The notes under the pieces were generated by a model. The model ran no database searches, was not told the origin of the DNA, and worked only from the letters and a program-made list of their open reading frames with translations. A DNA stretch of 50,216 nucleotides from an uncultured Opitutales bacterium (GTDB lineage: Bacteria > Verrucomicrobiota > Verrucomicrobiia > Opitutales > Seribacteraceae). Position numbers and translations under genes: made by a program. Each line of letters starts with the position of its first letter. Positions within the stretch are counted from its first letter, which is position 1. Shown one piece after another: positions 10,272 to 34,533 of the stretch. The stretch covers positions 1-50,216 of the forward strand of contig CAWVZQ010000001.1 of assembly GCA_963934405.1 (NCBI GenBank), in the 5' to 3' direction.

Positions 10272-10286
10272 CGAAAAGTTTCGACT

Positions 10287-13516: not shown

Positions 13517-13518
13517 CT

Positions 13519-13770: not shown

Positions 13771-14728
13771 AAATGCCTTTTGTCCATTCAACGCCGTTTT
13801 GGTTTTGTACGCAACCTTCCGCTCCAAAAAACCTATCGATTCTGGCAAGCCCTCGTTCGGTTCCGTCCAGCAAGGCGCAAGTGGACAGAACTCCAGCTTC
13901 CAGGCAGGAGCGTGAGATGACCGTTGCCGACAGACAGTTGTTGCTCGTTGGGTAACCCGTGCGATGATCGATCAAGTGCCCGTACCTTTTGCCGTTCTTT
14001 TCGAAAAACCTTCGATAGTTCCCCGATGTCGCTACAGCCATGCCCGAAACCGAAAAAATCCGTTGTGCTTGGCCTTGCTTTCCGGGATCTTCAAGACCGA
14101 CTCGCCATGCAGGCGCGTCGGGCGGAGAACCTGCGGCAAAAACATCGCCTCCAAAGTCGATGAGAAAATCCTCCAGCTCATGTTCACGGGCCAACTCAGT
14201 TACTCGGTCAACGGCATATTCTTTGCCAAAGCCTCCGAAATCTAGTCCCATCCCTGTTTTCGGCAGGAAGATGGAGCGGTTCTCTCGATGAACTTTCTTC
14301 CATCCGATTTTTGAAAGTGCCTCACTGATTGCGGATTTGGAGGGGATTTGCGGGTTCTCGGCTTTAAAATCCCAAAGGCGGGAAAGAGGAAGAGTGGTGG
14401 GATCAAAGAGTCCTTCCGTCAAAAAATGGAGGGTATCGCACAGGTCGAAAAGGTGAGTGTCTGTTTCGTCGGTTTCAACGGGGTTTCGACCAGCTACAGC
14501 ATTGATCCGGGATATTAGGCTGTCGTCCTTGAATCGGGAATAGCGGGCCTCAAATTGGTGCATCCAATCGAGTGCGTTTTTGCGAAAGATGTCGGCAGCT
14601 CCCATCGAATTCGCAGCATAGAGTATTTCGCAACGGGTTCCCATGGCAGGAAACTGCAGACGAAAGAGACCGTTGGCCAAGATTTTAGGAGAAATTTTGG
14701 ATGGAGCGTGCATCTTCAGAACTCCCAT
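13742..14728 (-). CDS. apbE: FAD:protein FMN transferase (ApbE)
   Basis: 'FPAMGTRCEILY', 'GLDFGGFGKEYAVD', 'AVATSGNYRRFF...GKRYGHLIDHRTGYP' are the classic ApbE motifs. An alternative start at 14713 would remove the overlap with the DUF3570 gene. Confidence 0.9.
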   Translation of the reverse strand: MGVLKMHAPSKISPKILANGLFRLQFPAMGTRCEILYAANSMGAADIFRKNALDWMHQFEARYSRFKDDSLISRINAVAGRNPVETDETDTHLFDLCDTLHFLTEGLFDPTTLPLSRLWDFKAENPQIPSKSAISEALSKIGWKKVHRENRSIFLPKTGMGLDFGGFGKEYAVDRVTELAREHELEDFLIDFGGDVFAAGSPPDAPAWRVGLEDPGKQGQAQRIFSVSGMAVATSGNYRRFFEKNGKRYGHLIDHRTGYPTSNNCLSATVISRSCLEAGVLSTCALLDGTERGLARIDRFFGAEGCVQNQNGVEWTKGIYEYLHDTTN

Positions 14729-21169: not shown

Positions 21170-21334
21170 ATACCAAAGTCTACTTCTCTGAATGGTCAAG
21201 CCATGGAGAGTGAGTATTGTGAGCAGCCTGTAACTAATCCGTTTTCTTTAGGACCATATAAGCGATAAATCCTATGTTTTGTTTCATCCGGCTTGCCACG
21301 ATGGGCCTGTGTCGTTGCGATGTTAGATAAAGTT

Positions 21335-22018
21335 ATGTCCTTTCTGGAAGTCAGTCACTTACGCAAGAGCTTTGTTTCGCCTGACGGCGGGAAGTCTCTC
21401 GTAGTGGATGTAGAAAATTTTTCCCTGTCGGCAGGAGACCTCTTCGGCATGCGTGGCGAAAGTGGTTCGGGGAAAACAACGTTTCTTCATCTTTTGGCGG
21501 GCATACTTCGACCAGACGAGGGATCCATCATTCTGGACGGGACCGAAGTGTCCAAATTGAACGAGGCCGCTCGCGATCACCTTCGGGCCTCTGCAATCGG
21601 TTATGTCTTCCAGTCTTTCAACCTTCTTCAGGGTTTTACCTGTCTCGAAAACATCATGCTCGCCATGTCCTTTGCCGGGAAGGTGAACGAGACTCGAGCC
21701 AAGGAGTTGCTTGATCGGGTAGGCCTTTCTCACCGTTTGGCTCATTATCCCCGTCAGCTTTCTATTGGGCAGCAGCAACGCGTGGCCCTCGCTCGGGCCT
21801 TGGCTAATCGTCCCAAACTAGTATTGGCCGACGAGCCAACGGGCAACCTCGATCCTAGCAATGCCCACAAGGCCCTCGCTCTCCTCCGAGAACTTTGCTG
21901 CGATGCCGGGTCGGCTCTCCTCCTCGTGAGTCACGATGAGAACGTGATCGGTGGCTTTGACGAAAATCTTGATTGGAGTGACCTCAACCGAGCCTTCGCC
22001 GAGGCGATGAACGATTGA
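21335..22018 (+). CDS. ABC transporter ATP-binding protein (MacB/LolD-type)
   Basis: Walker A 'GESGSGKTT', Q-loop 'YVFQSFNLL', signature 'LSIGQQQRVALARAL', Walker B 'LVLADEPTGNLD'. The internal Met ('MSFLEV') is preferred. Confidence 0.85.
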   Translation: MSFLEVSHLRKSFVSPDGGKSLVVDVENFSLSAGDLFGMRGESGSGKTTFLHLLAGILRPDEGSIILDGTEVSKLNEAARDHLRASAIGYVFQSFNLLQGFTCLENIMLAMSFAGKVNETRAKELLDRVGLSHRLAHYPRQLSIGQQQRVALARALANRPKLVLADEPTGNLDPSNAHKALALLRELCCDAGSALLLVSHDENVIGGFDENLDWSDLNRAFAEAMND

Positions 22019-22022
22019 TCCG

Positions 22023-23243
22023 ATGTTGCGCTCCGGTCCATGGATAATCCTCTTCCTCGCGACCCGCGGGTTGCGGCAATATGCCTTTTCCACTGCAGTG
22101 GCATCGCTTGCGATTGCCTTGGCGGGAGGCCTGTTTCTTGGAACTTGGAAAATCAAGGAGGAAGCGAAAAACGCGTTTTCTCGTTCTTCGGGAGGCTACG
22201 ATGCCGTCCTCGGGGCAAGAGGTTCCAAGCTGCAACTCGTACTCAACGGCCTTTTTCATCTCGAGGCCTCGCCCGGTAATCTTTCATGGGAACAGTATGA
22301 ACTCATTCGTGATACTCGAGGCGTAAGCGAAGCCTATCCAATCGCCGTGGGCGACAACTATCATGGCTTTCGTCTTGTCGGAACGCTTGCCGAGATGTTT
22401 GAAAAGCACGAATGGCGAAAAGGTCGGAAATACATTGTACAATCCGGCGGTCGACTTTTCACCGACAATGCGAAAGAGGCTCTTGTTGGAGCCTTTGTCG
22501 CTCGTAACCTTGGCTTGAAGGTGGGCGATAACTTTCATCCCTATCACGGTCTCACCTTCAAGGAAGAGGCGAAGCACAAGGATCTCTATGTCGTTGTCGG
22601 CATACTTGAGGCTACGGGTACCCCTAGCGACAAGGTTATATGGATTCCGATCAAGGGTATCCAGCTTATGGATGGGCATAACCCAGAGACCGCTACCGAC
22701 GTCAGTGCCGTTCTTCTTAACCTCAAGGGTGCTGCTGGGTTCATGCTGGACATGAAGTACAACAAGCAAGGCAATGTAGCCACACTCGCTTGGCCTGTTG
22801 CGGGCACCCTTGCTAGTTTCTTTGAGCGACTCGTTTGGTTTCAGCGTGTGCTTGAGATTATAGCCTATCTTGTCGCCTTTGTGGCGGCCTGCGTCATTCT
22901 CGCTATTTTGCGAAACGCCATGAACGAGCGCCGGCGAGAGATCGCCATCTTGCGTAGTCTCGGCGCTCGGCGTGCTACGGTCACGGCGGTCGTTCTCGCC
23001 CAGGCCGGACTGATTACTCTGCTGGGGATAGTGGGCGCCGCCTTCGCCTATTTGGGTATCGGCTTTCTCGCGGCTTCCGTGGTACGCGAGCAAACGGGTG
23101 TGCTTCTTGAGCCTTTCACCTATGATCCGAGCTTCTTTTACGTTCCAATCGGTATGCTTGCCGTAGGGTTTTTAAGCGGTTTGTTGCCTGCTCTCCAAGC
23201 TTACCGATCCGATGTAGCCAAGAACCTCGTCCAGCAGTCTTGA
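22023..23243 (+). CDS. FtsX/MacB-type ABC permease with ~210-aa periplasmic domain
   Basis: TM1, then a large extracytoplasmic domain, then three C-terminal TMs. 'ERRREIAILRSLGARRA' is the FtsX cytoplasmic-loop signature. Confidence 0.85.
   Translation: MLRSGPWIILFLATRGLRQYAFSTAVASLAIALAGGLFLGTWKIKEEAKNAFSRSSGGYDAVLGARGSKLQLVLNGLFHLEASPGNLSWEQYELIRDTRGVSEAYPIAVGDNYHGFRLVGTLAEMFEKHEWRKGRKYIVQSGGRLFTDNAKEALVGAFVARNLGLKVGDNFHPYHGLTFKEEAKHKDLYVVVGILEATGTPSDKVIWIPIKGIQLMDGHNPETATDVSAVLLNLKGAAGFMLDMKYNKQGNVATLAWPVAGTLASFFERLVWFQRVLEIIAYLVAFVAACVILAILRNAMNERRREIAILRSLGARRATVTAVVLAQAGLITLLGIVGAAFAYLGIGFLAASVVREQTGVLLEPFTYDPSFFYVPIGMLAVGFLSGLLPALQAYRSDVAKNLVQQS
22200..22826 (+). repeat. Copy A of a ~630-bp intra-locus duplication (periplasmic domain of FtsX permease)
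   Basis: Collinear DNA and protein similarity to 24209-24835. Includes a 35-nt identical tract, 22527-22561 = 24536-24570 ('gataactttcatccctatcacggtctcaccttcaa'). Confidence 0.8.
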
Positions 23244-23374
23244 ATAAGTGATGGTAGTGAAAGCCCTTTAAAGCTATATTGTTCTAAGTGGTAGATGCTT
23301 TGCACCGCCCGATGCTTGCAATAAATCCTCAAGTTTGATTAACTCTTCTACTTTGCGCACCACTTTGATTTTCC

Positions 23375-23959
23375 GTGAAGACTTATAGTAAAGCATTCCA
23401 TTGGAGATTGTTTTCGATCTCCATACTTGCCTTTTTTTTGGGTGCTTGCGGTGCCGAGGACGGATTGGTGGATGATGGAAAGAATGCTCCTCCATCGATC
23501 CCACAGGATTACCTTCCCGAAATTGCCCGACCATCCTTCCCAAAAGTTAATTTCGGAGTCCTTACGGGTTTTCGGTATAATGTGAATTGGGAAACCGATG
23601 GCAGGAGTCCTGATCAAGCCGCTTTTGCGCGCCGCGTACCTTCTGCTGCCCGCAGCCTGCATGGTCGTCGGGTCTCGGTAGAAGGCTATATGATTCCCGT
23701 GACCCTTATCGAAAATGATTCCAAGACTACCGAGTTCCTTTTGCTCCCCGACACCAAGGCATGTTGCGAAGGAAAGACCCCAAAGCAAAACGGTTGGATC
23801 CTCGTGAGGACCCCGCCGAAAGGCGAAAAGCCAGAATTAGACAAACTCTTGCGTGTCACCGGCGAATTTACTGTCCAAGAAAGATGGAACCCTTCTGATG
23901 GTTTTTTTAAGGGTCTTTATCATATGACTTGCGAAGACGTGACTCCCATTGCTTTATAG
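23375..23959 (+). CDS. DUF3299-like lipoprotein
   Basis: GTG start. Lipobox 'AFFLGACG'. 'VSVEGYMIPV...TEFLLLPDTKACCEGKTPKQNGWILV...LRVTGEF...GLYHMTCEDV' follows the DUF3299 pattern ('V.I.GF.VPL...EFLLVPYFGACIHVPPPP.NQ...V.G.L...Y.M'). Confidence 0.6.
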   Translation: MKTYSKAFHWRLFSISILAFFLGACGAEDGLVDDGKNAPPSIPQDYLPEIARPSFPKVNFGVLTGFRYNVNWETDGRSPDQAAFARRVPSAARSLHGRRVSVEGYMIPVTLIENDSKTTEFLLLPDTKACCEGKTPKQNGWILVRTPPKGEKPELDKLLRVTGEFTVQERWNPSDGFFKGLYHMTCEDVTPIAL

Positions 23960-23983
23960 TTTGTGCCAACGGAATTCAAGAAA

Positions 23984-25537
23984 ATGAAGACTACACTCAC
24001 CATCACTGGGATCATCACAGTATGTCTTCTTGGTGGTTGTGGTGGCGAGGGAGGAATCCAAGATTCTTCGGATTCTGTACCAAAAGGTGAACCCATTAGG
24101 GGAGAACCTATAACGGTTGAAAAAAAGGAATTGGACAGTTGGGAGGTCGTCGCAACTGAGATCAAGGAACTGAACGCAAGTGCTTTTCGCGCATTGAAAT
24201 GCGGGTTTGATGCCGTGCTGGGGGCTCGTGGTTCGAAAATACAGCTGGTTCTCAATAGTCTCCTGCATCTGGAGTCTTCCCCCGGCAATCTTTCCTGGGA
24301 GGAGTACGAAACTATTCGCGACACCCGTGGAGTGAGCGAAGCTTATCCAATCGCCGTCGGCGATAATTTCCGCGGTCATCGCTTGGTTGGAGCTCTTTCG
24401 GAAATGTTCGAAAAACACGAGTGGCGGGAGGGACAAAAGTACAACGTTCTACCCGAAGGGCGTATTTACAAGGATGATGCCAAGGAAGCACTCGTCGGAA
24501 GTTTTGCGGCTCGGAAATTGGGCCTTAAGGTGGGGGATAACTTTCATCCCTATCACGGTCTCACCTTCAACGAGGGAGCGAAGCATAAGGATGTTTATCT
24601 GGTTGTAGGCATACTTGAAGCTACGGGCACGTCTGCCGACAATGTCATTTGGATTCCCGTTCAGGGAATTCAGCTCATGGATGGTCATGATCCCAAGTTC
24701 GCCAAGGATATTAGCGCCGTTCTACTTAAACTAGACGGAGCCACCGGCTTTAGGTTGGACATGAAGTACAATAAGCAAGGCAAGTCGGTCACGCTTGCTT
24801 GGCCCTTGGAAAGAGTGTTGGCGGGGTTTTTCCAAGGAGGTTTGCCTCGATACCTGAAACTCGCTCGTCAGTTCGGGCAAGGCAACATGTCGGCCTTTGT
24901 TGATGGGGACTCGGTTTTACATGATGCTTTCGATGCCAAAGACGCCAACGTCACGATTGTGGAAGGGGAGGTGACAAGTGTCGGTGGGAAGATTGTTTCT
25001 CAGGTGACTTCTTCGGAGGAAAGGGAAATCGTGGATTTGCCCCCCCCTCCTGGGTCAGACTCCAACTTTTCTAATTTTCAGGATCCCGTGGTTTCAAACC
25101 TCCCCCCCTTGCCCAAGGGAAGCGGATACGCTCCTCTAAGTTTTGCAAGTATGTCGAAGTTCGCCTACGAGGTTGACTGGGAAAAGGATGGTATTAAATT
25201 CGACCTTTCGGCCTTCGCTCGTCGCGTCCCTATTACTGTCCGTCAAATGGATGGGCTAGCTGCAGCCGTTGAGGGGTTTATGATTCCCACCGTAGTAAAC
25301 GAAGATAATATGGTCACCGAGTTCTTGCTGCTCCCTGACCAAATGAGTTGCTGTTTTGGCAAAGCTCCCGAAGCCAACGGTTGGGTTGTCGTGACTGCAC
25401 CCAAGGGAGTTGAAATCATGATGGACAGGATTATTCGGGTGACCGGCACCATGGCCGTAGAGGAAAAATGGGACGAGGAGTTCTTCGTCGGCCTTTACCA
25501 CATGACCTGTGACAAGATTACGGGCCCGGCACTCTAA
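23984..25537 (+). CDS. Lipoprotein fusion: MacB/FtsX periplasmic-domain paralog (no TM domain) + DUF3299-like domain
   Basis: Lipobox 'VCLLGGCGG'. Residues ~83-291 (numbered from the 23963 ORF-track start) look roughly three-quarters identical by eye to residues 60-268 of the permease at 22023-23243. The C-terminus 'AAVEGFMIPT...TEFLLLPDQMSCCFGKAPEANGWVVV...IRVTGTM...GLYHMTCDKI' is paralogous to 23375-23959. Confidence 0.7.
   Translation: MKTTLTITGIITVCLLGGCGGEGGIQDSSDSVPKGEPIRGEPITVEKKELDSWEVVATEIKELNASAFRALKCGFDAVLGARGSKIQLVLNSLLHLESSPGNLSWEEYETIRDTRGVSEAYPIAVGDNFRGHRLVGALSEMFEKHEWREGQKYNVLPEGRIYKDDAKEALVGSFAARKLGLKVGDNFHPYHGLTFNEGAKHKDVYLVVGILEATGTSADNVIWIPVQGIQLMDGHDPKFAKDISAVLLKLDGATGFRLDMKYNKQGKSVTLAWPLERVLAGFFQGGLPRYLKLARQFGQGNMSAFVDGDSVLHDAFDAKDANVTIVEGEVTSVGGKIVSQVTSSEEREIVDLPPPPGSDSNFSNFQDPVVSNLPPLPKGSGYAPLSFASMSKFAYEVDWEKDGIKFDLSAFARRVPITVRQMDGLAAAVEGFMIPTVVNEDNMVTEFLLLPDQMSCCFGKAPEANGWVVVTAPKGVEIMMDRIIRVTGTMAVEEKWDEEFFVGLYHMTCDKITGPAL
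24209..24835 (+). repeat. Copy B of the ~630-bp duplication (inside the fusion lipoprotein gene)
   Basis: See copy A. Shared peptides include 'DAVLGARGSK', 'PGNLSWE', 'IRDTRGVSEAYPIAVGDN', 'MFEKHEWR', 'LGLKVGDNFHPYHGLTF', 'VVGILEATGT', 'DMKYNKQG'. Confidence 0.8.
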
Positions 25538-25546
25538 CTCTTGGCA

Positions 25547-25825
25547 TCACCCACCTGACATCGGGGTGATCAAAATCACCTCCGATTCGTCTTCTAGCGA
25601 AAGATCGTCCCTAAGGTCGACTTGGGTGTCATTTACGGCTACGACCAAGGTCGGTACCGGAGTCCCGTCGTCATTCACAACGAATTTCGAAAATTCGGGA
25701 CCATGTTCTCTAGAAATATTTCCAAGTAGCTCCACAAGCCCAATTCCATCGGCGACCTCGATGTCTTCCTCGGAGGTTCCTGCAGCAGTAGCAAGTTGCG
25801 AAGTGTAGCGAAGTGTGATTTTCAT
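25547..25825 (-). CDS. MoaD/ThiS-family ubiquitin-fold (beta-grasp) sulfur-carrier-like protein
   Basis: 92 aa. 'VAVNDTQVDLRDDLSLEDESEVILITPMSGG' has the same layout as the MoaD C-terminus ('AVN...V...L.DGDEVAFFPPVTGG') and ends in Gly-Gly. The ATG overlaps the stop of the ATPase gene (25822-25825). Confidence 0.8.
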   Translation of the reverse strand: MKITLRYTSQLATAAGTSEEDIEVADGIGLVELLGNISREHGPEFSKFVVNDDGTPVPTLVVAVNDTQVDLRDDLSLEDESEVILITPMSGG

Positions 25826-26502
25826 GACACACTTTCGGCGAAACTTCCTTTCTCCATCCTAATGGACCGGGATGCCCGTCCCGCCGCGCGGTCGTCGTGC
25901 GTGACCATGAGTACAGTGCCTCCCTCTTCGGCGAAAGTGGCAAGGTGATCAAGAATCGAATCGGCATTTTCGGGATCGAGATTGCCGGTCGGTTCGTCGG
26001 CCAACAAAAGTTGGGGATCGAGAAGCAACGCTCTGGCGAGTGCTACTCGCTGCTGTTCGCCCACGCTTAAGGCGGATGGTACATGGTGTCGGCGCTCGGT
26101 TAGGCCAAACTTTTCAAGCAAAGCCTTTGCCTTGTCTTCTGCACCGGGAAGGGCTCGAGCTAGGGTGGGGGCGAGCACGTTGTCCAATGCGTCAAGGTAG
26201 GGAACAAGATGAAATTGTTGAAAGACGAAGCCGATGTATTTTGCCCGGATGCTTGCCCTCCTTGCGCTGTCTACTTCGTAGGGCCGAGTGCCCATGATTT
26301 CCACTTCCCCTTGATCGGGTCTCAACAATCCTCCCGCGATCAAAAGGATGGTCGATTTCCCGCAACCACTGGGTCCACCCAGAGCTACGAATTCGCCCGA
26401 CGCGATCTCTAGGCTCATGTTGTTCACTGCCGCTACGGACGAGCCTTTTGGTCCCGCAAACGTCTTGTGCACATTTGTCGCTCTTAGAGTAAAGTCACTC
26501 AT
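25822..26502 (-). CDS. ABC transporter ATP-binding protein (MacB/LolD-type)
   Basis: Walker A 'GPSGCGKST', 'FVFQQFHLV', signature 'LSVGEQQRVALARAL', Walker B 'LLLADEPTGNLD', H-loop 'VTHD'. The start overlaps the permease stop by 8 nt. Confidence 0.9.
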   Translation of the reverse strand: MSDFTLRATNVHKTFAGPKGSSVAAVNNMSLEIASGEFVALGGPSGCGKSTILLIAGGLLRPDQGEVEIMGTRPYEVDSARRASIRAKYIGFVFQQFHLVPYLDALDNVLAPTLARALPGAEDKAKALLEKFGLTERRHHVPSALSVGEQQRVALARALLLDPQLLLADEPTGNLDPENADSILDHLATFAEEGGTVLMVTHDDRAAGRASRSIRMEKGSFAESVS

Positions 26503-27808
26503 TGCGAAGGATGGTTGCTGGATCTCGGTTAGCGGCTTGCAGGGCGGGCAACCATGATGCCGCGCAGGAGAGGACGGGTACGGATAAAAGGACTAGAGGA
26601 ATATCTCCCCGAAGAGACCTTAGGTCGAACCCATGAAGCGAATCCTTTAAGATGTCGGCTAGGAGAAAAGCGAAAAGCAGTGTCAAACCGGCTCCAAACA
26701 ATCCAACGAGAAACGCTCGCCCCATCAACGCGCCCAAGATCGAACCCGTGGAAATTCCCATGGCTCGGAGGATGCCGATTTCGGCTTGACGATCTCGAGA
26801 GTTGGCAAAGGCGAGAAAGGAAACCCAAGCCATAGAACCAAGAATCACGACAGTGAGAAGAGCCGTGTACTTTTGCTTATCCTCGAATCTTAGCTGGTCG
26901 CGGTCAGCTTGGAGTTTGATCGCCTCGGCCTTTTTAGATGCGATGGCGCGTTGACTATGTTTCTTTGCCTTGTTTCGGGCCTCGGCCCGAGCCAATGCCT
27001 TGCTTTCGGTCTCGATGACTTTCGTCCCGGGAAGTATGCCCGCAATTTCGCGGCGAATTTCTCCGAGGCGATCAATTGTGGCGCAATTGCATTCCAATGC
27101 CTTGATCGCATTGATGCGTCCTTCTTCTTTAAGAAGTTCTTGGCATTCGCCGAGGTGCATCCAAATGGTGATGTCGTCCTTCGTTCCGCGTTCTGCGTGA
27201 CATTTCCCGACGATGAATTCGCGTCCCATGAATACGGTGGCGTTCCCTTCCTTCAGGTCAAGCGATCGGTGGAGTTCGTGACCGAGTACGATCTGCCCTT
27301 TCTGCACGGGGTCAATGAGTGGCTTCTTGGGGTCACGGTGTGCGATTGGAACTTCGCCGCGAATACCGATTAGGATGACGGTGCGTTCCCGTTCGGGCCA
27401 CTTCAGCTTGCGGGTAAGGCTCGGCAGGAGGTGATTGACGGTTACGATTTTGCTTTCAGCCAAGGTGCCGGCATAGGACTCGGGCATTGTCTTTGAAGCG
27501 AACCCTTCTGCGTAAACTTCGCTTAGCTCCTGTCCTTCGGGAAAGATGAAGATGTTGAAACCCAGTCCTTTCATCGTTTTGCGGACATCGTCCTCGTAGG
27601 CTTTCATCTCTTTCGCGAACTTTGCTTCCATGTCGGCGGATTCTTCGTTCATCCTCGTTAGCATTTTCGAAGTTCGCAAGTCGTGCGCACCAAGTAAAGC
27701 AACCACTGCGACAAGTCCTGCGACGCTCGTTGCTATCGTTGCCACGGCGAGTCCGAAGCTTAGCTTGCGGTGACAAATTTCCCGCCCGATAAGTCGCCGA
27801 AGGTTCAC
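26495..27808 (-). CDS. FtsX/MacB-type ABC permease with ~270-aa periplasmic domain
   Basis: TM1 'FGLAVATIATSVAGLVAVVALLGA'. Large extracytoplasmic domain ending in a charged helix 'ARAEARNKAKKHSQRAIASKKAEAIKLQADRDQLRFEDKQK'. FtsX loop 'SRDRQAEIGILRAMGIS', then three C-terminal TMs. Confidence 0.8.
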   Translation of the reverse strand: MNLRRLIGREICHRKLSFGLAVATIATSVAGLVAVVALLGAHDLRTSKMLTRMNEESADMEAKFAKEMKAYEDDVRKTMKGLGFNIFIFPEGQELSEVYAEGFASKTMPESYAGTLAESKIVTVNHLLPSLTRKLKWPERERTVILIGIRGEVPIAHRDPKKPLIDPVQKGQIVLGHELHRSLDLKEGNATVFMGREFIVGKCHAERGTKDDITIWMHLGECQELLKEEGRINAIKALECNCATIDRLGEIRREIAGILPGTKVIETESKALARAEARNKAKKHSQRAIASKKAEAIKLQADRDQLRFEDKQKYTALLTVVILGSMAWVSFLAFANSRDRQAEIGILRAMGISTGSILGALMGRAFLVGLFGAGLTLLFAFLLADILKDSLHGFDLRSLRGDIPLVLLSVPVLSCAASWLPALQAANRDPATILRNE

Positions 27809-29013
27809 TGATCGCGATTTTTGTTCAGTACAAAAGTGCCAACCAGCAAGATGCCCGAGACCAATACCACGGCAACGATGAGGCCGTTCGAAATGGGAGG
27901 TTCATCCGTCGCCGTCTCTCGCTCGACGACCTCCGAAGAAGATGCGTTCGCCTCGAGTTCACCACTGTTTTCTTCGGTATTATCTTTTGCGGGTTCGTTG
28001 GCTGCAATGAGATCTTCGACTCCCGTCAGCGGCGGCAGTTCCTTCTCTGCGATTACGGAACTTCCTTCAAGGGCAGTCCACCAATCGGCTTTTACCAGTA
28101 TGTCCATGCCCGGATTTTGATTCTTAACTTGGCAAGAGCATGCGCCGCAAAGATACCCGCAGTCGGCCAGTGCGTTTTCCTCGCTTATTCCGGCACCAAT
28201 AAGTGGGGGAAGGACGCGACCTTTGCCAAATGCCGGGAAAAGCATCGGTTTATTCTCCATTTCTTTATCGAGCAGGTCGTCCTCCAAGCGCAAAAGCATG
28301 GACCTCAATATGGCTTCTTGAGGATCCTTGCGAGAGAGGCGCAAGATTGAAAAGGCGATCTTGAGAGGAACGGAGGACTCGAGAATGTTTTCTTCGTCTC
28401 CGGGGCTGAGAAGAAGGTTTGGGTCGTCGAGAGCACTTTGCTGAATAACGCCTTCAGGAACCGAAATCTCCTTTTCGGCAATCTTGGCGTATTTTTCGAG
28501 TGTATCGAAGAGTTTGTCGTCCTCTTTCTGATTTCCGGTTTCGAGGAAAAGCCAGACCGCCGAATCGCCTGCGAGAATTCGTTTTACCAGTTCTCGCCGG
28601 GTCGGAGAGTCCAGAATCTGGTTGATATTATTCCTTGTGAAGTTCCCGTTCCAAATGGGATTAGTGTTCTGTTCGAAGGCTTCGAATGGGAAGAAAAGGT
28701 GAATGGAGACCGAAGCGTTTTGGTCGCTGTGAAGTTTTTTCCAGCGTGCAAACTGTTTTTCCTCCTTGGCCAGATCGAGGGTTTCGAAACGAAGATTTAT
28801 CATCGGGCCGTTCGGTCCGACTAGGTTTTCCTCCAAATAAGTGACATTGGATTGCTCTTCGCCGGTTAGGTTGCCGTCATGAACAATAACCAATTGGTAA
28901 TGATCGGGTTGCCATCTCTCCAACGCGTAACGAAATACGGGCACCTGACAAGCTTCCGTGATCACGGCAGCAGTTAGGAGAATTAAGCAAACTGTGGTTA
29001 TCCGAGCATTCAT
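27805..29013 (-). CDS. Hypothetical periplasmic protein with N-terminal Cys, C-x3-C-x2-C-x-C cluster and C-terminal TM anchor
   Basis: Signal peptide 'MNARITTVCLILLTAAVITEA', then 'CQVPVFRYALERW'. 'ADCGYLCGACSCQ' at nt 28132-28161. An acidic linker, then TM 'GLIVAVVLVSGILLVGTFVL'. The stop overlaps the permease start (ATGA). I recognise no characterised family. Confidence 0.8.
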   Translation of the reverse strand: MNARITTVCLILLTAAVITEACQVPVFRYALERWQPDHYQLVIVHDGNLTGEEQSNVTYLEENLVGPNGPMINLRFETLDLAKEEKQFARWKKLHSDQNASVSIHLFFPFEAFEQNTNPIWNGNFTRNNINQILDSPTRRELVKRILAGDSAVWLFLETGNQKEDDKLFDTLEKYAKIAEKEISVPEGVIQQSALDDPNLLLSPGDEENILESSVPLKIAFSILRLSRKDPQEAILRSMLLRLEDDLLDKEMENKPMLFPAFGKGRVLPPLIGAGISEENALADCGYLCGACSCQVKNQNPGMDILVKADWWTALEGSSVIAEKELPPLTGVEDLIAANEPAKDNTEENSGELEANASSSEVVERETATDEPPISNGLIVAVVLVSGILLVGTFVLNKNRDQ

Positions 29014-29180
29014 GAATTGGAAGTCTCCTAAAGTGTTTCGTTCGGGATTTAGGAGGTCAAGCAGATCTTCCCACGGACGACTTTTTTCTTAACTGGGCCT
29101 TCGACTCATTCAAATTCGATGATGTGAGATTACATTTGGAGTATTGAATCCCGATCAGTAATTAATTCAGTAAAAGCGAT

Positions 29181-29843
29181 TTACTTTGCCGACCTTTTCT
29201 TTCTCTTCGTTTTCCCCTTAGTCTTTTTCGAGGATTTTTTCTCGCCCGAAGAAGAGTCTTTGGAAGGTTTTGAAGCAGGCGCCAGACTAACTTTTTTCAT
29301 ATGGTCTGGATTGCTTACTGAACCGCTGCCTGGGGCGCCTCGCTTAATCTTATCGACAAATTTCATGCCTTCAACGACCTGCCCCCAAACCGTATATTGT
29401 CCATCCAGAAAGTTGGCATTGTCCAAACAGATGAAAAATTGGCTATTTGCGCTGTCCGGATTACTGGATCTAGCCATCGAGCAGGCGCCTTTGCCATGTT
29501 TGCGCTTGTTGAATTCTGCGGGAATGTCGGGTTTGTCGGAACCCCCTGTACCTACGCGTCCTTCGTTGAATTTTTTTACGTTGCCGAACTGTACGTCACC
29601 CGTCTGGGCCATAAAACCGTCTATCACCCTATGGAAGGCGACGCCGTCGTACTTTCCCGCTTTTGCGAGTTCTTTTATCCGGGCCACATGTTTGGGCGCG
29701 GTATCGGGGTACATCTCGATGACGACTTGTCCGTCATCCAAATCGATGAGCAAGGTGTTTTCGGGATCTATATCGGCCTTGGTTTTGGCGTCGGTCATTG
29801 TGATGGGAAGGATAAACGCGGCTATCGCGAGTAGTTTCTTCAT
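29181..29843 (-). CDS. Periplasmic cyclophilin-type peptidyl-prolyl cis-trans isomerase with polybasic C-terminal tail
   Basis: Signal 'MKKLLAIAAFILPITM'. 'FHRVIDGFMAQTGD', 'SMARSSNPDSANSQFFI', 'LDGQYTVWGQVVEGM'. Tail 'KKSSKKTKGKTKRKKRSAK'. Confidence 0.9.
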   Translation of the reverse strand: MKKLLAIAAFILPITMTDAKTKADIDPENTLLIDLDDGQVVIEMYPDTAPKHVARIKELAKAGKYDGVAFHRVIDGFMAQTGDVQFGNVKKFNEGRVGTGGSDKPDIPAEFNKRKHGKGACSMARSSNPDSANSQFFICLDNANFLDGQYTVWGQVVEGMKFVDKIKRGAPGSGSVSNPDHMKKVSLAPASKPSKDSSSGEKKSSKKTKGKTKRKKRSAK

Positions 29844-29886
29844 TGTAGTTTGGGTTGATGGTGAGCGACGGAGCAAGAAGGGCGGC

Positions 29887-30867
29887 TCAACCTGGATACC
29901 AGATCTTACGGGCATCTTCGGGAGAACGTTGATAGTTCCAAGCTTTGTCTATGAGTAGTTTCAAATCAATTTTTGGCCTCCAGTCGAGAAGGAACTTGGC
30001 TTTCGAGTTGTCCAGCCAAGTGCTGTGGTGGGGTGTTGGCACATCCACGGAGGGCAGTCCTCGGCTTTCCTTCAGGTAGTCGGCCACCTTGCGATAGTGC
30101 ACGGGCTCATTCATGCAGATATTAAAAAGCTGCTGGCGAGCCTTTGGATTATCGATCGCAAGCATAATCGCGGATGCGAGATCCTCGACGTGAACGAAGT
30201 TGCGCTGAACGGGTTCTCCTGTGGGGTCGAGCATAACCGGTATGGTTTGGGCGGCCTCATATCTCGTGGCTTCCTCAGGAGAAACGAGATCGTGCCAAAC
30301 AGGGCCTCCGAAGACATCACTTCCAAAGGAAAGCGTATGCTTGAAGTCGTCTTTCTCCATGATCCATGGGGCGCGAAGGCAGCAACCATTGAAATCGTAC
30401 TGGGTGTAGTACTGTTCGAGCATGACTTCCTCCAGTACTTTGGACAGAGCGTAGCATCCGGGGTAGGCTGAATGCTTTTGCGTTTCGGTAACGGGATTGG
30501 GATGGGGATAGAAGAAGTGCCCCATACCTGCATCCCCTCCGATCAAAATAAATTGTTCGAAGGATGGGCTCGTCCGGCATTCTTCCAGAAGCCAGAACAA
30601 TCCCTTAACCGTGACGTCCATTACTTCTTCGGGAGTCTCTTTGCAGGTGGCGAGATGCAAAACATGGGTGACTCCATTGATCGCTTCGGCGACCAGATTG
30701 CGATCGGCAATGCTCCCGCGGATTATTTCCAGCCGTGATGTCTCTTCCAGCAGTCGATTGTGACAAAGTGCCTTTACCGTGGCTTCGGAGAATTTTTTAT
30801 CTTCCAGAAAACGGCGAAGAAAATGCGTTCCCACTTTACCTGTCGCTCCGGTGAGGAGAATCTTCAT
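29887..30867 (-). CDS. NAD-dependent epimerase/dehydratase family (extended SDR) protein
   Basis: 'MKILLTGATGKVGTHF' Rossmann motif. Catalytic 'YALSK' (Y-x3-K). Confidence 0.85.
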   Translation of the reverse strand: MKILLTGATGKVGTHFLRRFLEDKKFSEATVKALCHNRLLEETSRLEIIRGSIADRNLVAEAINGVTHVLHLATCKETPEEVMDVTVKGLFWLLEECRTSPSFEQFILIGGDAGMGHFFYPHPNPVTETQKHSAYPGCYALSKVLEEVMLEQYYTQYDFNGCCLRAPWIMEKDDFKHTLSFGSDVFGGPVWHDLVSPEEATRYEAAQTIPVMLDPTGEPVQRNFVHVEDLASAIMLAIDNPKARQQLFNICMNEPVHYRKVADYLKESRGLPSVDVPTPHHSTWLDNSKAKFLLDWRPKIDLKLLIDKAWNYQRSPEDARKIWYPG

Positions 30868-30941
30868 GGGTGTTGAGGGGACAAATCTACAATGTCTTCC
30901 CTGTTCAAGGAAAGAGGGCAGGAATGAAAACGTACGCTCCC

Positions 30942-32243
30942 TTACAGCAATTTGGTAAGGGGTTGGCCTTTGTCGGCTAAGGTGAAGGGGCGGCGTGTGG
31001 GTGAGTAGACGATTTCGTCAAGTGGAAGTCCCAGAGCATAGGCTATGGTGGCATTGAAATCGGGAATCTCGACACGTTGATCTACGACTTCGCGACCTTC
31101 GGGGTCAGTTTTACCCCAGACTTGTCCTCCTCGAATACCTCCGCCCGCGAGCATGGATGAGAATGCTTTCGGATAATGATCACGGCCTTGGTTTACGTTA
31201 ATGTTTGGCGTACGGCCAAACTCAGTTGCCAGCACCACGAGGGTTTCGTCAAGCATGCCTCGCTTGTCGAGGTCTCCCAGTAGCGCCGCAAGCGCTTGGT
31301 CGAGGATAGCACAACGCTCGGGTGCTCTATCGAAGTTGAGTTGATGGGTGTCCCAACCTCCGAGTTGTACCTCCACGAAACGAACGTGCCTTTCCACCAA
31401 ACGCCGGGCTAGCAGTACGCCTTGACCGAATGTTTCTTCGCCATAAGCCTCTCGCGTCTCCTCAGACTCCTTATCTATATCGAAAGCCTCAAGGTCACCG
31501 CTTTTCATGAGGCGCACCGCATCTGCGTACATGTCCGAATAAGCTCTCACCTTCTTCAAATTGTATTTTTCTCGAAAGCCCTTGTCGAACTGATCGGCGA
31601 GAGAAAGGCGTTTCTTAAATTCCTCCTCGGTGACGCCGGGATGCATTCTGCTATTGCGGAGTCCTTCGTCGGGTTTGCCAATGGCTAACGGTTGGTGGGA
31701 GGATGGAAGAAATCCTGCGAGCGGATGCTGGCTGCCTCCGCTTACGACAACGGCTCCGGGCAAAGTGGGATTGGAACGTTCGTCAAGCCGAGTCATCCAA
31801 GCTCCCATGCTCGGGTGACGAATCGTCGATCTGGGAGCATAACTGGTATGCATGAAATAATTGCCTTGTTGATGCGCCCCCTTTGTCGACGTCATGCCCC
31901 GCACTACCGCGATCTTGTCCGCGTGATTAGCCAGAAGTGGAAGGTTTTCGGCAAGTTGCAATCCGTCTGTATTGGTCTTGATTGCGGTTGTAGGCCCCCC
32001 GGTTTTCGTGCCGGGTTTTGGGTCGAACGTATCGATGTGGGTCATGCCGCCGGCCATGTATAGGTAGATGACGTTGCGGGCCTTTGGAGCGTGGTTGAGG
32101 GGGCGATTGAGCCCTAAGCCTGCAGCTGTGGCTTGCTTCGGCATTGCCCAAGGCAGAATGCTGACACCGAGAAAAGCTTTTGCGGCTTGTGTGACGAAGC
32201 GGCGCCTAGAGAATTCGTCTGCTTGGTTTAGGATGTTTTTCAT
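30942..32243 (-). CDS. DUF1501 domain protein (sulfatase-fold, Tat signal)
   Basis: 'SRRRFVTQAAKAFLG' twin-Arg signal. 'GGMTHIDTFDPKP', 'TEFGRTP', 'GRDHYP' are hallmark DUF1501 motifs. Confidence 0.85.
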   Translation of the reverse strand: MKNILNQADEFSRRRFVTQAAKAFLGVSILPWAMPKQATAAGLGLNRPLNHAPKARNVIYLYMAGGMTHIDTFDPKPGTKTGGPTTAIKTNTDGLQLAENLPLLANHADKIAVVRGMTSTKGAHQQGNYFMHTSYAPRSTIRHPSMGAWMTRLDERSNPTLPGAVVVSGGSQHPLAGFLPSSHQPLAIGKPDEGLRNSRMHPGVTEEEFKKRLSLADQFDKGFREKYNLKKVRAYSDMYADAVRLMKSGDLEAFDIDKESEETREAYGEETFGQGVLLARRLVERHVRFVEVQLGGWDTHQLNFDRAPERCAILDQALAALLGDLDKRGMLDETLVVLATEFGRTPNINVNQGRDHYPKAFSSMLAGGGIRGGQVWGKTDPEGREVVDQRVEIPDFNATIAYALGLPLDEIVYSPTRRPFTLADKGQPLTKLL

Positions 32244-32280
32244 AATGTTTTCCGGAATGAAGTTCTTGGCAGTATCGGTT

Positions 32281-34533
32281 TTATTGAATGAATGAAAACT
32301 GCCTGGTGTTGAGCAAGGTCCAAGCGAGTCCTCGAATTCCTGAATTCATGCCATATGAGCTCTTACTTTTAGCTCTTTGGGCATAATACTTTAATAGCTT
32401 TCTCTTTCTCTCCGGGGAAATATTGGCGGGAATTCGCGAAGAGTAATCAGGGGTTTTATCTTTTGCCCCATCAATTTCGTCGAGACAGGTCTCCAGCTCC
32501 TCTTTGGTTGGTTTTCTGTTAAGAATGGAAAGGAATAAAATATCTACTTTATCCTTGATCGCATCAACTCGAGAAAGATCTTCGGCGAATGGTGCGGCAG
32601 GTTGTTTCAAGATGGCTTGATAAATGGAGCCATTCAGCAAACTGAGAGCTTGCGGCACAGAAGCTTCGCGACTGGCGTTTTCTATGACTTCTCTGTCCGA
32701 CTGACCAAATTCTCTTAGGAAATGACCGTTGGGTGCGGGTGATGGCATGTAGGAAGCTCTGACTAACTGTCTCGAAAAGCCTTTCCATCGATCCGGCGAC
32801 GAGTCGCTTGAACTTTTACTGCTTGGCGCTCTGCCGTAAAGGGCTCTGCCATCGAAACCTTTTCCCATTATGAGAGAGGCATAAGAGGCTCTTTGCTTAT
32901 TTCGAAGCTGCCCGTACTCACGGCGCAAGCGAGACACGGTTTCAAGTTCGTTATTCTCCTGAGCGTCTCGCAATTTTTTTTGAATGCCTAGCATTTCATC
33001 GTTTGAGCTTTTGCTCATGCGCGCACCTTTTTTGGCGACGGAAAGCATTTCTTTTCCTTTTAAATCGTAAACTTTTTCCTCATAGGCGGAGAGTTGCTCT
33101 TCCCGTGATTGATGACGACTCAAGTCAGGCTTCCTTTCATCAACATAGGGAATCGACAAGGTTACAAAAGAGTCCCACAGTTGCTCTGCGCTCATCCGTT
33201 GGAGGATGGGACCCGGGAAGTGATAGGGTTCGCCGGATACGATTTCTTCCGTGGAAGTCTCGCGACGAAAGGCTTTTACGTTGTAGAGGATTCGAAGAAA
33301 CTGCTTGATGTCGTAGTTAAGTCCGATCATCAGCTTTTCCAAGTGTGCCAATAGTTCGGGGTTGGAGGGGATCGTGTCGTCTCTAATGTCATCCACAGGT
33401 TCGATTACCCCGACCCCAAAAACACGTTTCCAAAGACGGTTTGCAATGACTTTTGAAAAGCGCGGGTTTTCTGACGAAGTCATCCACTGGGCATAGCCTT
33501 CCACCGGATCCGTTTCCTCATCTAGCTTATCACTTTTTCCGAAAATCGGAGCTGCAGAAATTGAAGCTTTAGGCTTTGCGTCTTCATATTGGTAATCGTG
33601 GGGGAGTTGCAACTTTCGCGGATTGTGGGAGGCGCCGTATCGGAGTGGTCGCATGATTTCGCTGGCCGCTCGTCGCAAGAGTTGGCCTTCCTTTGACTTG
33701 TACGCCTTTTTTCTTTTTTCTGCATCGCTTCCCTTGAATTGGCTGAAAAAAGCGTTCTGCATTTCCTTTTGTTTCTCCCCACCCATGCGCGCCTGAACAC
33801 CGTATGTGTAGGCTGCCATTTGGTAATACTCCATCTGCGTCCACTTGTCGAAAGGGTGGTTGTGACACTGTGCGCAAACCATTTGAGTACCGAGGAAGAC
33901 TTGTGTGGTGTTGGACATGTTGTCCAAGGGCATTCCCGCGTCTCGCATGTAGTAGCCCACGGCGCCATTGTTCCAGGGATAACCTTTCGCCGTAATGAGC
34001 TTTCGGGCCACTTCGTCGAAAGGCATGTTTTGCCTGATGGCATTCATCATCCAAATGGCATAACTTACTCCGCCGCCCACGTTGTTGGCTCCACCATTTC
34101 TAGCAGGAGATTGAATGCGTAGCAAATCCGCCCACCAATTGAAGGTATGGCTGTCATAAGCCTCGGAATTGAGAATCCGATCGATCAAGGTGGAGTGCTT
34201 TTGTGGATCGTTGCTTTCAAGAAACCCCGTGGTCTCTTGATAAGTGGGTATGCGACCCCCTACTTGAAGGTGTGCCCTGCGGACGAAAGTCGCATCATCC
34301 GCCAATGGCAAGGGTTTGACTTTATTTTTTGAGTAGCCTTTGGCCAATATGGCATCGATGGCTTTGGCGTCTTTGAGGACTTCTTCCAAAGCTCGGACTT
34401 CTTGTACTTCTTTGCCTTGAATCTTGGTATCGGTGTAAGCATTGCCAAAACCGTAAGTCACCCCCGACAGAGCAATGGCGATACAAGAGAGACTCAGTAA
34501 GTGATTTTTAATCATAATATAATTGTTCCTCAC
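32281..34533 (-). CDS. DUF1549/DUF1553 (PSD1) domain protein
   Basis: 'FVRRAHLQVGGRIPTYQETTGFL', 'CAQCHNHPFDKWTQMEYYQMAAY', 'RMSAEQLWDS', C-terminal 'LLNTRQFSFIQ'. Classic partner of DUF1501 in PVC genomes. Confidence 0.85.
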   Translation of the reverse strand: MRNNYIMIKNHLLSLSCIAIALSGVTYGFGNAYTDTKIQGKEVQEVRALEEVLKDAKAIDAILAKGYSKNKVKPLPLADDATFVRRAHLQVGGRIPTYQETTGFLESNDPQKHSTLIDRILNSEAYDSHTFNWWADLLRIQSPARNGGANNVGGGVSYAIWMMNAIRQNMPFDEVARKLITAKGYPWNNGAVGYYMRDAGMPLDNMSNTTQVFLGTQMVCAQCHNHPFDKWTQMEYYQMAAYTYGVQARMGGEKQKEMQNAFFSQFKGSDAEKRKKAYKSKEGQLLRRAASEIMRPLRYGASHNPRKLQLPHDYQYEDAKPKASISAAPIFGKSDKLDEETDPVEGYAQWMTSSENPRFSKVIANRLWKRVFGVGVIEPVDDIRDDTIPSNPELLAHLEKLMIGLNYDIKQFLRILYNVKAFRRETSTEEIVSGEPYHFPGPILQRMSAEQLWDSFVTLSIPYVDERKPDLSRHQSREEQLSAYEEKVYDLKGKEMLSVAKKGARMSKSSNDEMLGIQKKLRDAQENNELETVSRLRREYGQLRNKQRASYASLIMGKGFDGRALYGRAPSSKSSSDSSPDRWKGFSRQLVRASYMPSPAPNGHFLREFGQSDREVIENASREASVPQALSLLNGSIYQAILKQPAAPFAEDLSRVDAIKDKVDILFLSILNRKPTKEELETCLDEIDGAKDKTPDYSSRIPANISPERKRKLLKYYAQRAKSKSSYGMNSGIRGLAWTLLNTRQFSFIQ

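Follow-up and report, generated by a model that had tools for sequence, protein, structure and literature searches.

An eight-gene cluster of Verrucomicrobiota and Lentisphaerota that combines an unannotated periplasmic cysteine protein, a MacB-type ABC system, a ThiS/ThiF pair, and a tandem ModA-like importer

Introduction

ATP-binding cassette (ABC) systems of the MacB kind (type VII) act by mechanotransmission on periplasmic partners (PMC5985334), and MacAB-TolC, LolCDE, and FtsEX are the described members closest to the locus considered here. Sulfur carriers of the ubiquitin-like (Ubl) type and their E1 enzymes are represented by MoaD-MoeB, ThiS-ThiF, CysO-MoeZ, HcyS-HcyF, and QbsE-QbsC, together with HesA, a ThiF-family protein of nif clusters tied to S/Mo supply outside the molybdenum cofactor (Moco) (PMC6361004). 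In this work, we analyzed a stretch of 50,216 nt (the window) of an uncultured Opitutales bacterium (assembly GCA_963934405.1, contig CAWVZQ010000001.1, positions 1–50,216), where four chained genes bring the two kinds of system together: a cysteine protein hereafter called X, an FtsX/MacB-type permease, its ATPase, and a ThiS/MoaD-family Ubl. An earlier interpretation made from the sequence alone (the sequence-only reading) knew of no described system that couples a MacB-type machine to a Ubl sulfur carrier. The literature that we searched agrees with it, as no description of a MacB/FtsX system coupled to ThiS/ThiF or to a tandem ModA was found, and a survey of the beta-grasp fold has no mention of ABC linkage (PMC1949818).

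With MacAB-TolC, LolCDE, and FtsEX, the locus shares a PF02687 permease of four transmembrane helices with a large periplasmic domain, and a LolD/MacB-like nucleotide-binding domain; it differs from them by an invariant periplasmic CxC, by the lack of a MacA-type adaptor among its conserved neighbors, and by scores far under the cut-offs. Likewise, it resembles the sulfur-carrier pairs in having a GG-ending beta-grasp protein of ~90 aa and a ThiF-family E1 with two CxxC motifs, and a rhodanese-fused E1 also occurs in one variant cluster (L090; loci are designated by L numbers). Unlike those pairs, however, it has no MoaE, ThiG/ThiH, CysM/Mec, MetY, or JAMM partner in its clusters, is translationally coupled to an envelope ABC system, and stays below every NCBIfam equivalog cut-off. 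The importer encoded further along the cluster is comparable to the ModABC, WtpABC, and NifC-type systems, with an SBP_bac_11 fold for which ModA is the best structure, a permease near TIGR01581/modB, and an ATPase near WtpC/ModC, but its substrate-binding protein (SBP2) is a membrane-anchored tandem with altered S12/Y170 ligand positions and an invariant Cys by the pocket. In A. baumannii, redox-active Cys can tune the affinity of ModA (PMC11734730).

A functional analogy, and an analogy only, is provided by NosDFY-NosL. NosDFY is strictly required for the assembly of the CuZ site in NosZ, a Sec-exported beta-propeller enzyme, a process in which Cys-rich chaperones are involved and the source of the CuZ sulfide is unknown (PMC8457098). 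The likeness lies in an ABC system with a cytoplasmic ATPase, a periplasm-facing partner, and a beta-propeller client. However, NosY is of the ABC-2 type, NosD is a beta-helix, and NosL is a lipoprotein, while the permease here is of the FtsX type and X is unrelated to NosD or NosL; the nos cluster has no Ubl/E1 pair or SBP-dependent importer. None of the NosY, NosD, NosL, and NosZ families was present in the family scans of the window or among the conserved neighbors.

As a tentative but plausible reading, we propose that an ATP-driven periplasmic cysteine relay may load or mature secreted propellers and may be fed by the oxyanion importer and by sulfur activation on ThiS/ThiF.

Results

Four coupled genes and the ancestral operon

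The chain is encoded on the minus strand of the window. Its genes, and the motifs referred to below, are as follows:

27805–29013, minus strand: X, 402 aa (ORF listing; no Pfam, NCBIfam, or PDB sequence match)
26495–27808, minus strand: FtsX/MacB-type (type VII) ABC permease, 437 aa, GTG start (PF02687)
25822–26502, minus strand: ABC ATPase of the FtsX permease, LolD/MacB-like nucleotide-binding domain, 226 aa (PF00005)
25547–25825, minus strand: ThiS/MoaD-family ubiquitin-like protein, 92 aa, ends ...TPMSGG (PF02597)
28912–28950, minus strand: mature N-terminus of X, CQVPVFRYALERW (translation and alignments)
28132–28161, minus strand: Cys cluster CGYLCGACSC of X (translation)
27083–27091, minus strand: periplasmic C240-N-C242 motif of the FtsX permease (translation and ortholog alignment)

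All four ORFs, chained by stop/start overlaps, were present as the sequence-only reading had described them, with one minor error: the 4-nt overlap of X and FtsX at 27805–27808, taken for ATGA, reads GTGA base by base, because FtsX starts with GTG. The FtsX and ABC genes overlap by 8 nt (ATGAGTGA), and the ABC and ThiS genes by 4 nt (ATGA). The proposed architectures also stood. PF02687, PF00005, and hydropathy agree with a four-transmembrane FtsX/MacB permease and its ATPase as genes 2 and 3; gene 4, described as a beta-grasp protein with the Gly-Gly end of MoaD/ThiS, matches PF02597 and ends in GG; and the signal peptide, N-terminal Cys, CGYLCGACSC cluster, acidic linker, and C-terminal transmembrane segment of X were all found.

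Relatives of X were scanned in one genome per species. By doing so, 296 genomes were matched and 80 loci retrieved, on which eight families were mapped with phmmer and locally built hidden Markov models (HMMs); the locus counts given here were taken over 77 X genes non-redundant at 95% identity. Verrucomicrobiota make up the overwhelming majority of the 296 genomes, besides which there are some Lentisphaerales and a few bins of Omnitrophota and Gemmatimonadales. On contigs carrying X homologs ~45% identical to that of the window, X-FtsX-ABC-ThiS is directly followed by ThiF, a double SBP_bac_11 protein of ~500 aa, a BPD_transp_1 permease, and a second ABC ATPase, and the eight genes are contiguous in about 25 loci, with X identities of 35–68%. 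The ancestral operon is thus composed of X, FtsX, ABC, ThiS, ThiF, the tandem ModA-like SBP, ModB, and ModC. The cluster is conserved in Verrucomicrobiota and Lentisphaerota, and parts of it are present in Kiritimatiellia, Planctomycetota, and a few other bins.

In the window genome, this operon is broken after ThiS, and the four overlapping genes are its 5′ half. The 3′ half is located at 8803–12657, on the same strand and 12.9 kb from the 5′ half:

11926–12657, minus strand: ThiF/MoeB-family E1 (PF00899)
10287–11867, minus strand: SBP2, membrane-anchored tandem of two complete ModA-like domains (PF13531 matched twice)
9441–10271, minus strand: ModB/NifC-like ABC importer permease (PF00528)
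8803–9444, minus strand: ModC/WtpC-like importer ATPase (PF00005; longest ORF reaches 9708)

The sequence-only reading had reported the gene at 11926–12657 as a MoeB-like E1 lying 13 kb off. Its nature as an E1 was confirmed (PF00899), but not its separateness: because ThiF directly follows ThiS in relatives (L001–L003, L012, L017, and other loci), it is the E1 of this very operon, moved away by a rearrangement.

In 44 of 67 loci, X is followed by FtsX, and the ABC ATPase comes after X-FtsX in 38 of 42. When the neighborhood of the Ubl was checked, ThiS was found after the ABC gene in 30 of the 42 non-redundant X-FtsX loci with enough downstream sequence (31 if L053 is counted). The gap between the two genes is at most 90 nt in 30 of 36 loci, and the ABC stop and ThiS start share the ATGA overlap in 18 of 36, including Verrucomicrobiales whose X is only ~40% identical. 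Where at least 6 kb of downstream sequence is available (35 loci), ThiF occurs in 21 and the tandem SBP likewise in 21. Given the recurring ATGA overlap, the arrangement is far beyond chance. All 87 ThiS orthologs detectable by a word-indexed search are at least 57% identical to the window ThiS, and the seven 92-aa copies mapped in Opitutales loci, together with P0306 on a JGI contig, are all in an X/FtsX/ABC context, none with moaE. ABC/X pairs without the Ubl, combined with Ubl orthologs beside moaE/moaA, had been named beforehand as the pattern that would speak against linkage; this was not the pattern seen, and the outcome favors linkage.

These figures also bear on the mundane alternative raised by the sequence-only reading, an ordinary moaD at the end of an unrelated ABC operon, and on its variant in which X is a lipoprotein of a Lol-like ABC system. 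We regard such an accidental grouping as very improbable. The annotation of ThiS as MoaD-family, the weak matches of the ABC genes to the LolD and LolC/E models, and the invariant Cys straight after the X signal peptide would fit it. Nevertheless, the neighborhood statistics largely refute the ordinary moaD, as ThiS follows the ABC gene in ~74% of the X-FtsX loci, in distant lineages and often with the 4-nt overlap, and the operon of relatives includes both E1 and importer. The Lol models are far below their cut-offs, and X has a C-terminal transmembrane anchor and a cleavage site that often bears a charged residue at −2 (E, K, R, D, H), as a lipobox would not allow.

The same genes also occur in other orders. 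L087 has ThiS-ThiF-X-FtsX-ABC divergent from SBP2-ModB-ModC, and L069 (Lentisphaerales) has SBP2-ModB-ModC-X-FtsX-ABC-ThiS-ThiF. In L085 (Lentisphaera araneosa HTCC2155, ABCK01000004.1) and L089, X is on the opposite strand and is followed by PQQ-PQQ-FtsX-ABC-SBP2-ModB-ModC and a GG-ending Ubl, with ThiF additionally after the Ubl in L089. L088 comprises X-FtsX-ABC-SBP2 without ModBC, and L086 a propeller with SBP2-ModB-ModC. In L090 (6787–13223) there are a Ubl, a cluster-type ThiF, a canonical MoeB::rhodanese, two half-size ArsP_1 (PF03773) permeases, and SBP2-ModB-ModC, without FtsX or X; in that locus, the MacB-type system is replaced by a different second membrane component. FtsX, X, a propeller, or ThiS/ThiF occur in seven of the nine contexts sampled for the tandem SBP, and in the other two the importer stands alone, in one case on a 4.8-kb contig. 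The same gene content in differing orders is a classical signature of functional coupling, and the linkage of ThiS, ThiF, and SBP2 to X and FtsX, kept across these orders, bears this signature. The conclusion that the ThiS gene is functionally tied to X, FtsX, and ABC, and is not an accidental moaD, is supported. The complete gene set is also present in the cultured L. araneosa HTCC2155 (LNTAR_08719 to LNTAR_08764), whose cluster locus tags were not found in the searched literature.

Protein X

X had been considered impossible to assign to any characterized family, and our searches point the same way: HMM searches of Pfam and NCBIfam and a search of PDB sequences, including a profile search, gave no match. 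Its family is nonetheless very large: a 90%-clustered database contains more than 1,189 homologs, none of which has a name beyond "hypothetical," and a profile search of a 50%-identity library gave 3,586 representatives, 2,332 of them with an E-value of 1e-30 or better. All 74 aligned sequences, those of paralogs without FtsX among them, have C22, C292, and C294, and the thirteen residues after C22 are almost invariant. In the CGYLCGACSC cluster, only the last two Cys (the CxC formed by C292 and C294) are invariant; C289 is kept in 65 of the 74 sequences, and C285 is variable.

At the cleavage site, position −1 is always Ala, −3 is small or aliphatic, and −2 is often E, K, R, D, H, or Q. Because the −2 residue is often charged, signal peptidase I rather than a lipobox-dependent route is indicated, and the mature protein should start with a free Cys. 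X was also considered as a lipoprotein or Lol client, a candidate rejected on account of this charged −2 position and of the C-terminal anchor. The latter corresponds to a transmembrane segment at residues 378–396 by hydropathy, and in every member of the family the C-terminus consists of a hydrophobic helix and, after it, basic residues. The acidic linker contains 11 D/E and 2 K/R residues.

The AlphaFold model of X (pLDDT 80.8, pTM 0.70) displays an alpha/beta ectodomain followed by the disordered acidic linker. Its best PDB matches in Foldseek are the a-b domains of protein disulfide isomerase (PDI), ERp57, calsequestrin, and Wind, all tandem thioredoxin-like folds, with probability up to 0.98 and an E-value of 5e-4 to PDI a-b, at TM-scores of only 0.2–0.3. 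On these matches, which we take as evidence of moderate strength, the ectodomain may have a thioredoxin/PDI-like fold. X would resemble PDI, ERp57, and Sco-type proteins in its predicted tandem thioredoxin-like domains, in a reactive-looking Cys at a helix start, and in being periplasmic and membrane-tethered. It differs from them in having a mature N-terminal Cys and a distal CxC instead of a CxxC, in the lack of PDB sequence similarity, and in the low TM-scores. No CxxC/CxxS active site exists in X, as C22-Q-V-P has no second Cys and the other invariant Cys are those of the CxC at 292–294.

Secreted beta-propellers

When all the neighboring ORFs were clustered, the commonest neighbors of X were secreted PQQ_2/BamB-like beta-propellers of 900–1,400 aa, in which LamG_3 or malectin modules and a segment resembling a degenerate methyltransferase are also found. 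Among 64 loci whose upstream sequence was available, 31 have a propeller no more than 600 bp from X; by type, this is the case for 17 of 23 X genes without FtsX and 15 of 44 with FtsX. Five metagenome-assembled genomes (MAGs) have the full cluster and a second X, among them close relatives of the window organism (L006/L067 and L009/L068), and the second X adjoins a propeller in four of the five. A G-C-x-C motif followed by an aromatic residue is present in 46 of 68 neighboring propellers, with a third Cys ~22 residues upstream of the CxC in the examples viewed by eye. The probable clients of the system are secreted PQQ-like propellers with this C...CxC motif.

The PQQ_2 protein of the window (848–2308) was rejected as an X-linked propeller, since it lacks the CxC and is no ortholog of the 477-aa type. 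A likeness of the propellers to tetrathionate hydrolase was not supported, with generic blade similarity and a TetH E-value of 0.002, no better than BamB.

The pairing of X and propellers could also mean that X is a thiol-disulfide oxidoreductase or chaperone for the CxC propellers, regulated or energized by FtsX-ABC, with ThiS, ThiF, and ModABC serving a separate process. CxC is a known redox-active motif, the fold predicted for X is PDI-like, propellers accompany X also in loci that lack FtsX and ThiS (17 of 23), and a secreted cyclophilin is encoded upstream in Opitutales. On the other hand, ThiS, ThiF, and SBP2 stay linked to FtsX, X, and propellers in at least four gene orders and in different phyla, ThiS remains coupled to ABC by the conserved ATGA, and L088 has SBP2 after X-FtsX-ABC without ModBC. 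With these facts in view, folding as the sole task of X is quite unlikely.

The FtsX-ABC machine

By hydropathy, the permease has transmembrane helices at residues 20–38, 316–334, about 357–386, and 405–423, with a periplasmic domain of ~277 aa between the first two. This domain is very strongly conserved, and its C240 and C242 are present in 44 of 44 orthologs; the C-N-C motif is also found in L085 and L087–L089. It is unrelated to the periplasmic domain of a second FtsX of the window, described below. The ATPase has Walker A, signature, Walker B, and H-loop. The permease scored far below the cut-offs of MacB (NF007826, 21 bits vs. 966) and LolC/E (lolCE, 36.4 bits vs. 362), and the ATPase below that of LolD (189 bits vs. 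307.75). A MacA-type adaptor was not among the conserved neighbor families of the clustered loci.

ThiS/ThiF and the tandem ModA-like importer

ThiS matches PF02597 with 34.6 bits (cut-off 22.5), and its best matches are the moaD_arch, moaD, and SAMP1 models, all below cut-offs (moaD, TIGR01682, 34.6 bits vs. 66.15; moaD_arch, TIGR01687, 38.8 bits vs. 49.5). ThiF matches PF00899 with 156.7 bits, and its best NCBIfam matches are MoeB and UbaA, also below cut-offs (MoeB subfamily, NF004281, 152.3 bits vs. 266; MoeB equivalog, TIGR02355, 124.5 bits vs. 376.55). Both CxxC zinc motifs of ThiF, C169/C172 and C239/C242, are kept without exception in the 27 sequences aligned. In L090, the MoeB::rhodanese reaches 296 bits against the NF004281 cut-off of 266, and the adjoining cluster-type E1 reaches 178. 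Because the former passes the MoeB cut-off and its neighbor fails it, the cluster E1 forms a subfamily of its own.

The AlphaFold2 model of SBP2 (pLDDT 89.4) has an N-terminal transmembrane helix and two complete type-II binding proteins, and its best Foldseek matches are ModA and YvgL-like proteins (TMt 0.76–0.85, E-value about 1e-14). The modA cut-off is not reached (TIGR01256, 53.9 bits vs. 62.5). At the ligand positions of E. coli ModA, S12 is replaced by an invariant G and Y170 by an invariant W. C54, G57, S83, and W214 are invariant, and the invariant Cys precedes the pocket loop by three residues. For the permease, the nearest models are the NifC-like TIGR01581 (191 bits vs. 210) and modB (TIGR02141, 147.3 bits vs. 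182.6), both below cut-off, and the ATPase is closest to WtpC and ModC, again below cut-off. The longest ORF of the latter, 8803–9708, overlaps the ModB gene by 268 nt; as M89 of this ORF is the conserved start in the alignment of orthologs, the true start is probably the ATG at 9444, with a 4-nt overlap with the ModB stop. The imported anion would be of the ModA type.

A plain molybdenum or tungsten function has to be weighed here. SBP2-ModBC would be a molybdate/tungstate importer, ThiS/ThiF would be the MoaD/MoeB of the organism, and X, FtsX-ABC, and the propellers would handle or use the same metal on the periplasmic side (for example, in capture, discrimination, or a pterin-free Cys-ligated site). 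Consistent with it, MoaD, MoeB, ModA, ModB/NifC-like, and WtpC are the best family or structure matches, the source annotations read molybdate-binding protein and molybdopterin converting factor (ThiS being annotated as MoaD-family), and the affinity of the A. baumannii ModA can depend on redox-active Cys (PMC11734730). Several results make it unlikely, however. Every equivalog or subfamily cut-off was missed (moaD, MoeB, modA), a canonical MoeB::rhodanese passes its cut-off in L090 right beside a cluster-type E1, and both molybdate ligand positions mentioned above, S12 and Y170, are replaced. The absence of moaE from the window, already remarked upon in the sequence-only reading, was borne out by a Pfam scan of 39 window ORFs (including 36 of the 37 non-nested ORFs of at least 150 aa; 46755–47738 and 48415–49434 were left out), which detected no moaE, moaA, moaC, moeA, or other Moco gene. 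Moco families were not among the conserved neighbors of about 85 loci either, and a scan of the window and five loci at Rfam gathering thresholds gave no Moco, SAM, or other riboswitch.

The importer also admits an inward route, in which propellers, X, and the MacB-type ABC mobilize extracellular or periplasmic reduced sulfur or a thio-oxyanion (such as thiosulfate or polysulfide), SBP2-ModBC imports it, and ThiF/ThiS capture its sulfur as a thiocarboxylate to be assimilated, as CysO or HcyS do. An SBP-dependent importer and a cytoplasmic ThiS/ThiF pair are indeed in one operon, and the SBP2 pocket departs from that of ModA in its invariant Trp at Y170, presumably a donor of the type found in the sulfate-binding protein. 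Furthermore, the E1 of L090 is fused to a rhodanese, the LamG and malectin modules of the propellers are typical of substrate-acting exoproteins, and an anion-selective OprO/P-type porin adjoins the cluster in Opitutales. Against this stand the proximity of SBP2 to ModA, and not to Sbp or CysP, in Foldseek, the abundance of sulfate in seawater, and the pattern of one X per propeller, which looks more like a dedicated partnership. Neither sulfite reductase nor a CysM/MetY/Mec acceptor was found among the recurring neighbor families, most single neighbor ORFs being unscanned. As a whole, sulfur harvesting in this direction seems doubtful.

Surrounding genes

The uninterrupted order epimerase-PPIase-X-FtsX-ABC-ThiS-ThiF-SBP-ModB-ModC (PPIase, peptidyl-prolyl isomerase) was observed in L011 and L012 (Opitutia) and on the JGI contig. 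There, ModC is followed by a response regulator, a histidine kinase, an OprO/P-type porin, and a Na/Pi-PhoU transporter. In L013, whose X is 60% identical, a 4.8-kb module on the opposite strand, composed of a second ABC, a second FtsX, and two DUF3299 proteins, is placed exactly at the ThiS/ThiF junction, and the same module is also the inserted block in L005–L009. The corresponding genes of the window, between and beside the two halves of the operon, are as follows:

21293–25537, plus strand: ABC/FtsX/DUF3299 inserted module, a second, unrelated MacB-type system (at the ThiS/ThiF junction of relatives)
21293–22018, plus strand: ABC ATPase of the module
22023–23243, plus strand: FtsX permease of the module
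23375–23959, plus strand: DUF3299 protein of the module
23963–25537, plus strand: DUF3299 protein of the module, 524 aa
15896–20710, plus strand: OmpR-type response regulator, histidine kinase, OprO/P phosphate-selective porin, and Na/Pi cotransporter with PhoU domain (inverted, between the operon halves)
12731–15873, minus strand: 265-aa protein without family match, ApbE, and DUF3570 protein, directly upstream of ThiF
13742–14728, minus strand: ApbE flavin transferase
14716–15873, minus strand: DUF3570 protein
29181–30867, minus strand: secreted cyclophilin PPIase and NAD-dependent epimerase, directly upstream of X (Pfam)
30942–34533, minus strand: PSCyt2/PSD1 protein and DUF1501 protein, upstream of the epimerase-PPIase-X block

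Residues 66–291 of the 524-aa DUF3299 protein of the module copy the periplasmic domain of the neighboring FtsX permease, with 73% identity over 226 aligned residues. This copy, a soluble duplicate of the permease domain, stands behind a lipoprotein-like signal (LLGGCGG) and is fused to a C-terminal DUF3299. The regulator, porin, and Na/Pi block is located downstream of ModC and on the same strand in relatives, including the JGI contig, and may reflect co-regulation with anion or phosphate status. None of the 265-aa, ApbE, and DUF3570 genes is conserved beside the cluster in other loci.

Upstream of X, the epimerase-PPIase-X order is kept in L005–L014 and the JGI contig; this synteny is specific to Opitutales, and the membership of the cyclophilin and the epimerase in the system is uncertain. 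The PSCyt2/PSD1 and DUF1501 genes, a typical "planctomycete cytochrome" pair of the Planctomycetes-Verrucomicrobia-Chlamydiae group, are syntenic in L005–L013 and the JGI contig. A promoter and terminator scan of 25300–31100 gave counts at chance level and was uninformative. Near the cluster in other loci, a TrmB-family regulator stands beside X in L085 and L089, where sulfatase genes are also close by, and Metallophos (purple-acid-phosphatase-like) genes recur in L001/L017, L085, and L086. Elsewhere in the window, the gene at 45253–46749 (plus strand) encodes an unusual fusion of an ABC-3 (ZnuB/MntB-type) permease to a C-terminal DtxR-type metal-binding/dimerization domain (Fe_dep_repr_C), within a ZnuA/ABC/ABC-3 operon and beside a separate DtxR-FeoA regulator (42737–43396).

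Discussion

Each part of the cluster, with the exception of X, falls in a known superfamily, and none reaches the curated threshold of a characterized family; X itself is in no described family. Invariant Cys motifs are a feature of all the periplasmic members, the cytoplasmic ones are the Ubl/E1 pair and the nucleotide-binding domains, and transport falls to one MacB-type complex and one SBP-dependent importer. In the cysteine relay proposed at the outset, cytoplasmic ATP hydrolysis by the MacB-type ABC system would drive a conformational change of the periplasmic domain (mechanotransmission), and a thiophilic species, either sulfane sulfur or an oxyanion-derived metal or thio-anion, would go from the FtsX CxC to X (N-terminal Cys and CxC) and on to the Cys3 site of the propeller, so that the relay would load or mature the propellers. 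The tandem ModA-like protein would capture an oxyanion for import by ModBC, and ThiF would adenylate ThiS, leading to a thiocarboxylate through which sulfur for this pathway is supplied or processed. The rhodanese-fused E1 beside the Ubl/E1/SBP2-ModBC set in L090 lends support to sulfur-transfer chemistry. A bolder version, which we consider improbable, is that the imported ModA-type oxyanion and the sulfur of the ThiS thiocarboxylate are combined and passed via the MacB-type ABC and X to the Cys3 (C...CxC) sites of the propellers, as a new sulfur- or thiometalate-type cofactor.

A number of points weigh against the relay. Its topology is the weak point, since there is no known route for ThiS-bound cytoplasmic sulfur to the periplasm, and we know of no MacB-type permease that carries substrates from the cytoplasm to the periplasm. 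The sequence-only reading had hypothesized that sulfur or a thiol-containing cofactor is delivered to the periplasm; this part of it is conjectural, and the SBP-dependent transporter of the operon points inward and argues for at least one inward step. As the best family matches of ThiS, ThiF, and SBP2 are MoaD, MoeB, and ModA, the second half of the operon may have a plain Mo/Moco role. About a quarter of the X-FtsX-ABC loci have no ThiS nearby, and the window has no CxC propeller, its only PQQ_2 protein (848–2308) lacking the motif. Finally, the thioredoxin-like assignment of X depends on TM-scores as low as 0.2–0.3, and conserved periplasmic Cys, of which SBP2 has six, may be merely structural disulfides.

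The presence of the full set in the cultured L. araneosa HTCC2155 makes the idea of a relay directly testable. If the modules do cooperate, this would be the first Ubl sulfur carrier and E1 coupled to a MacB-type mechanotransmission ABC and a periplasmic thiol protein, and, if the bolder version is true, the first ubiquitin-like sulfur carrier to feed an extracytoplasmic process. Such cooperation would also touch the question of how Sec-exported periplasmic enzymes obtain sulfur or thiophilic cofactors, the CuZ sulfide of NosZ being the classic example. Verrucomicrobia, Lentisphaerae, and Planctomycetes are key degraders of polysaccharides in sea and soil, and cooperation of the modules would provide a function both for the very large unannotated family of X, with its ~3,586 clusters at 50% identity, and for the abundant PQQ/BamB-like "giant" exoproteins of these phyla.

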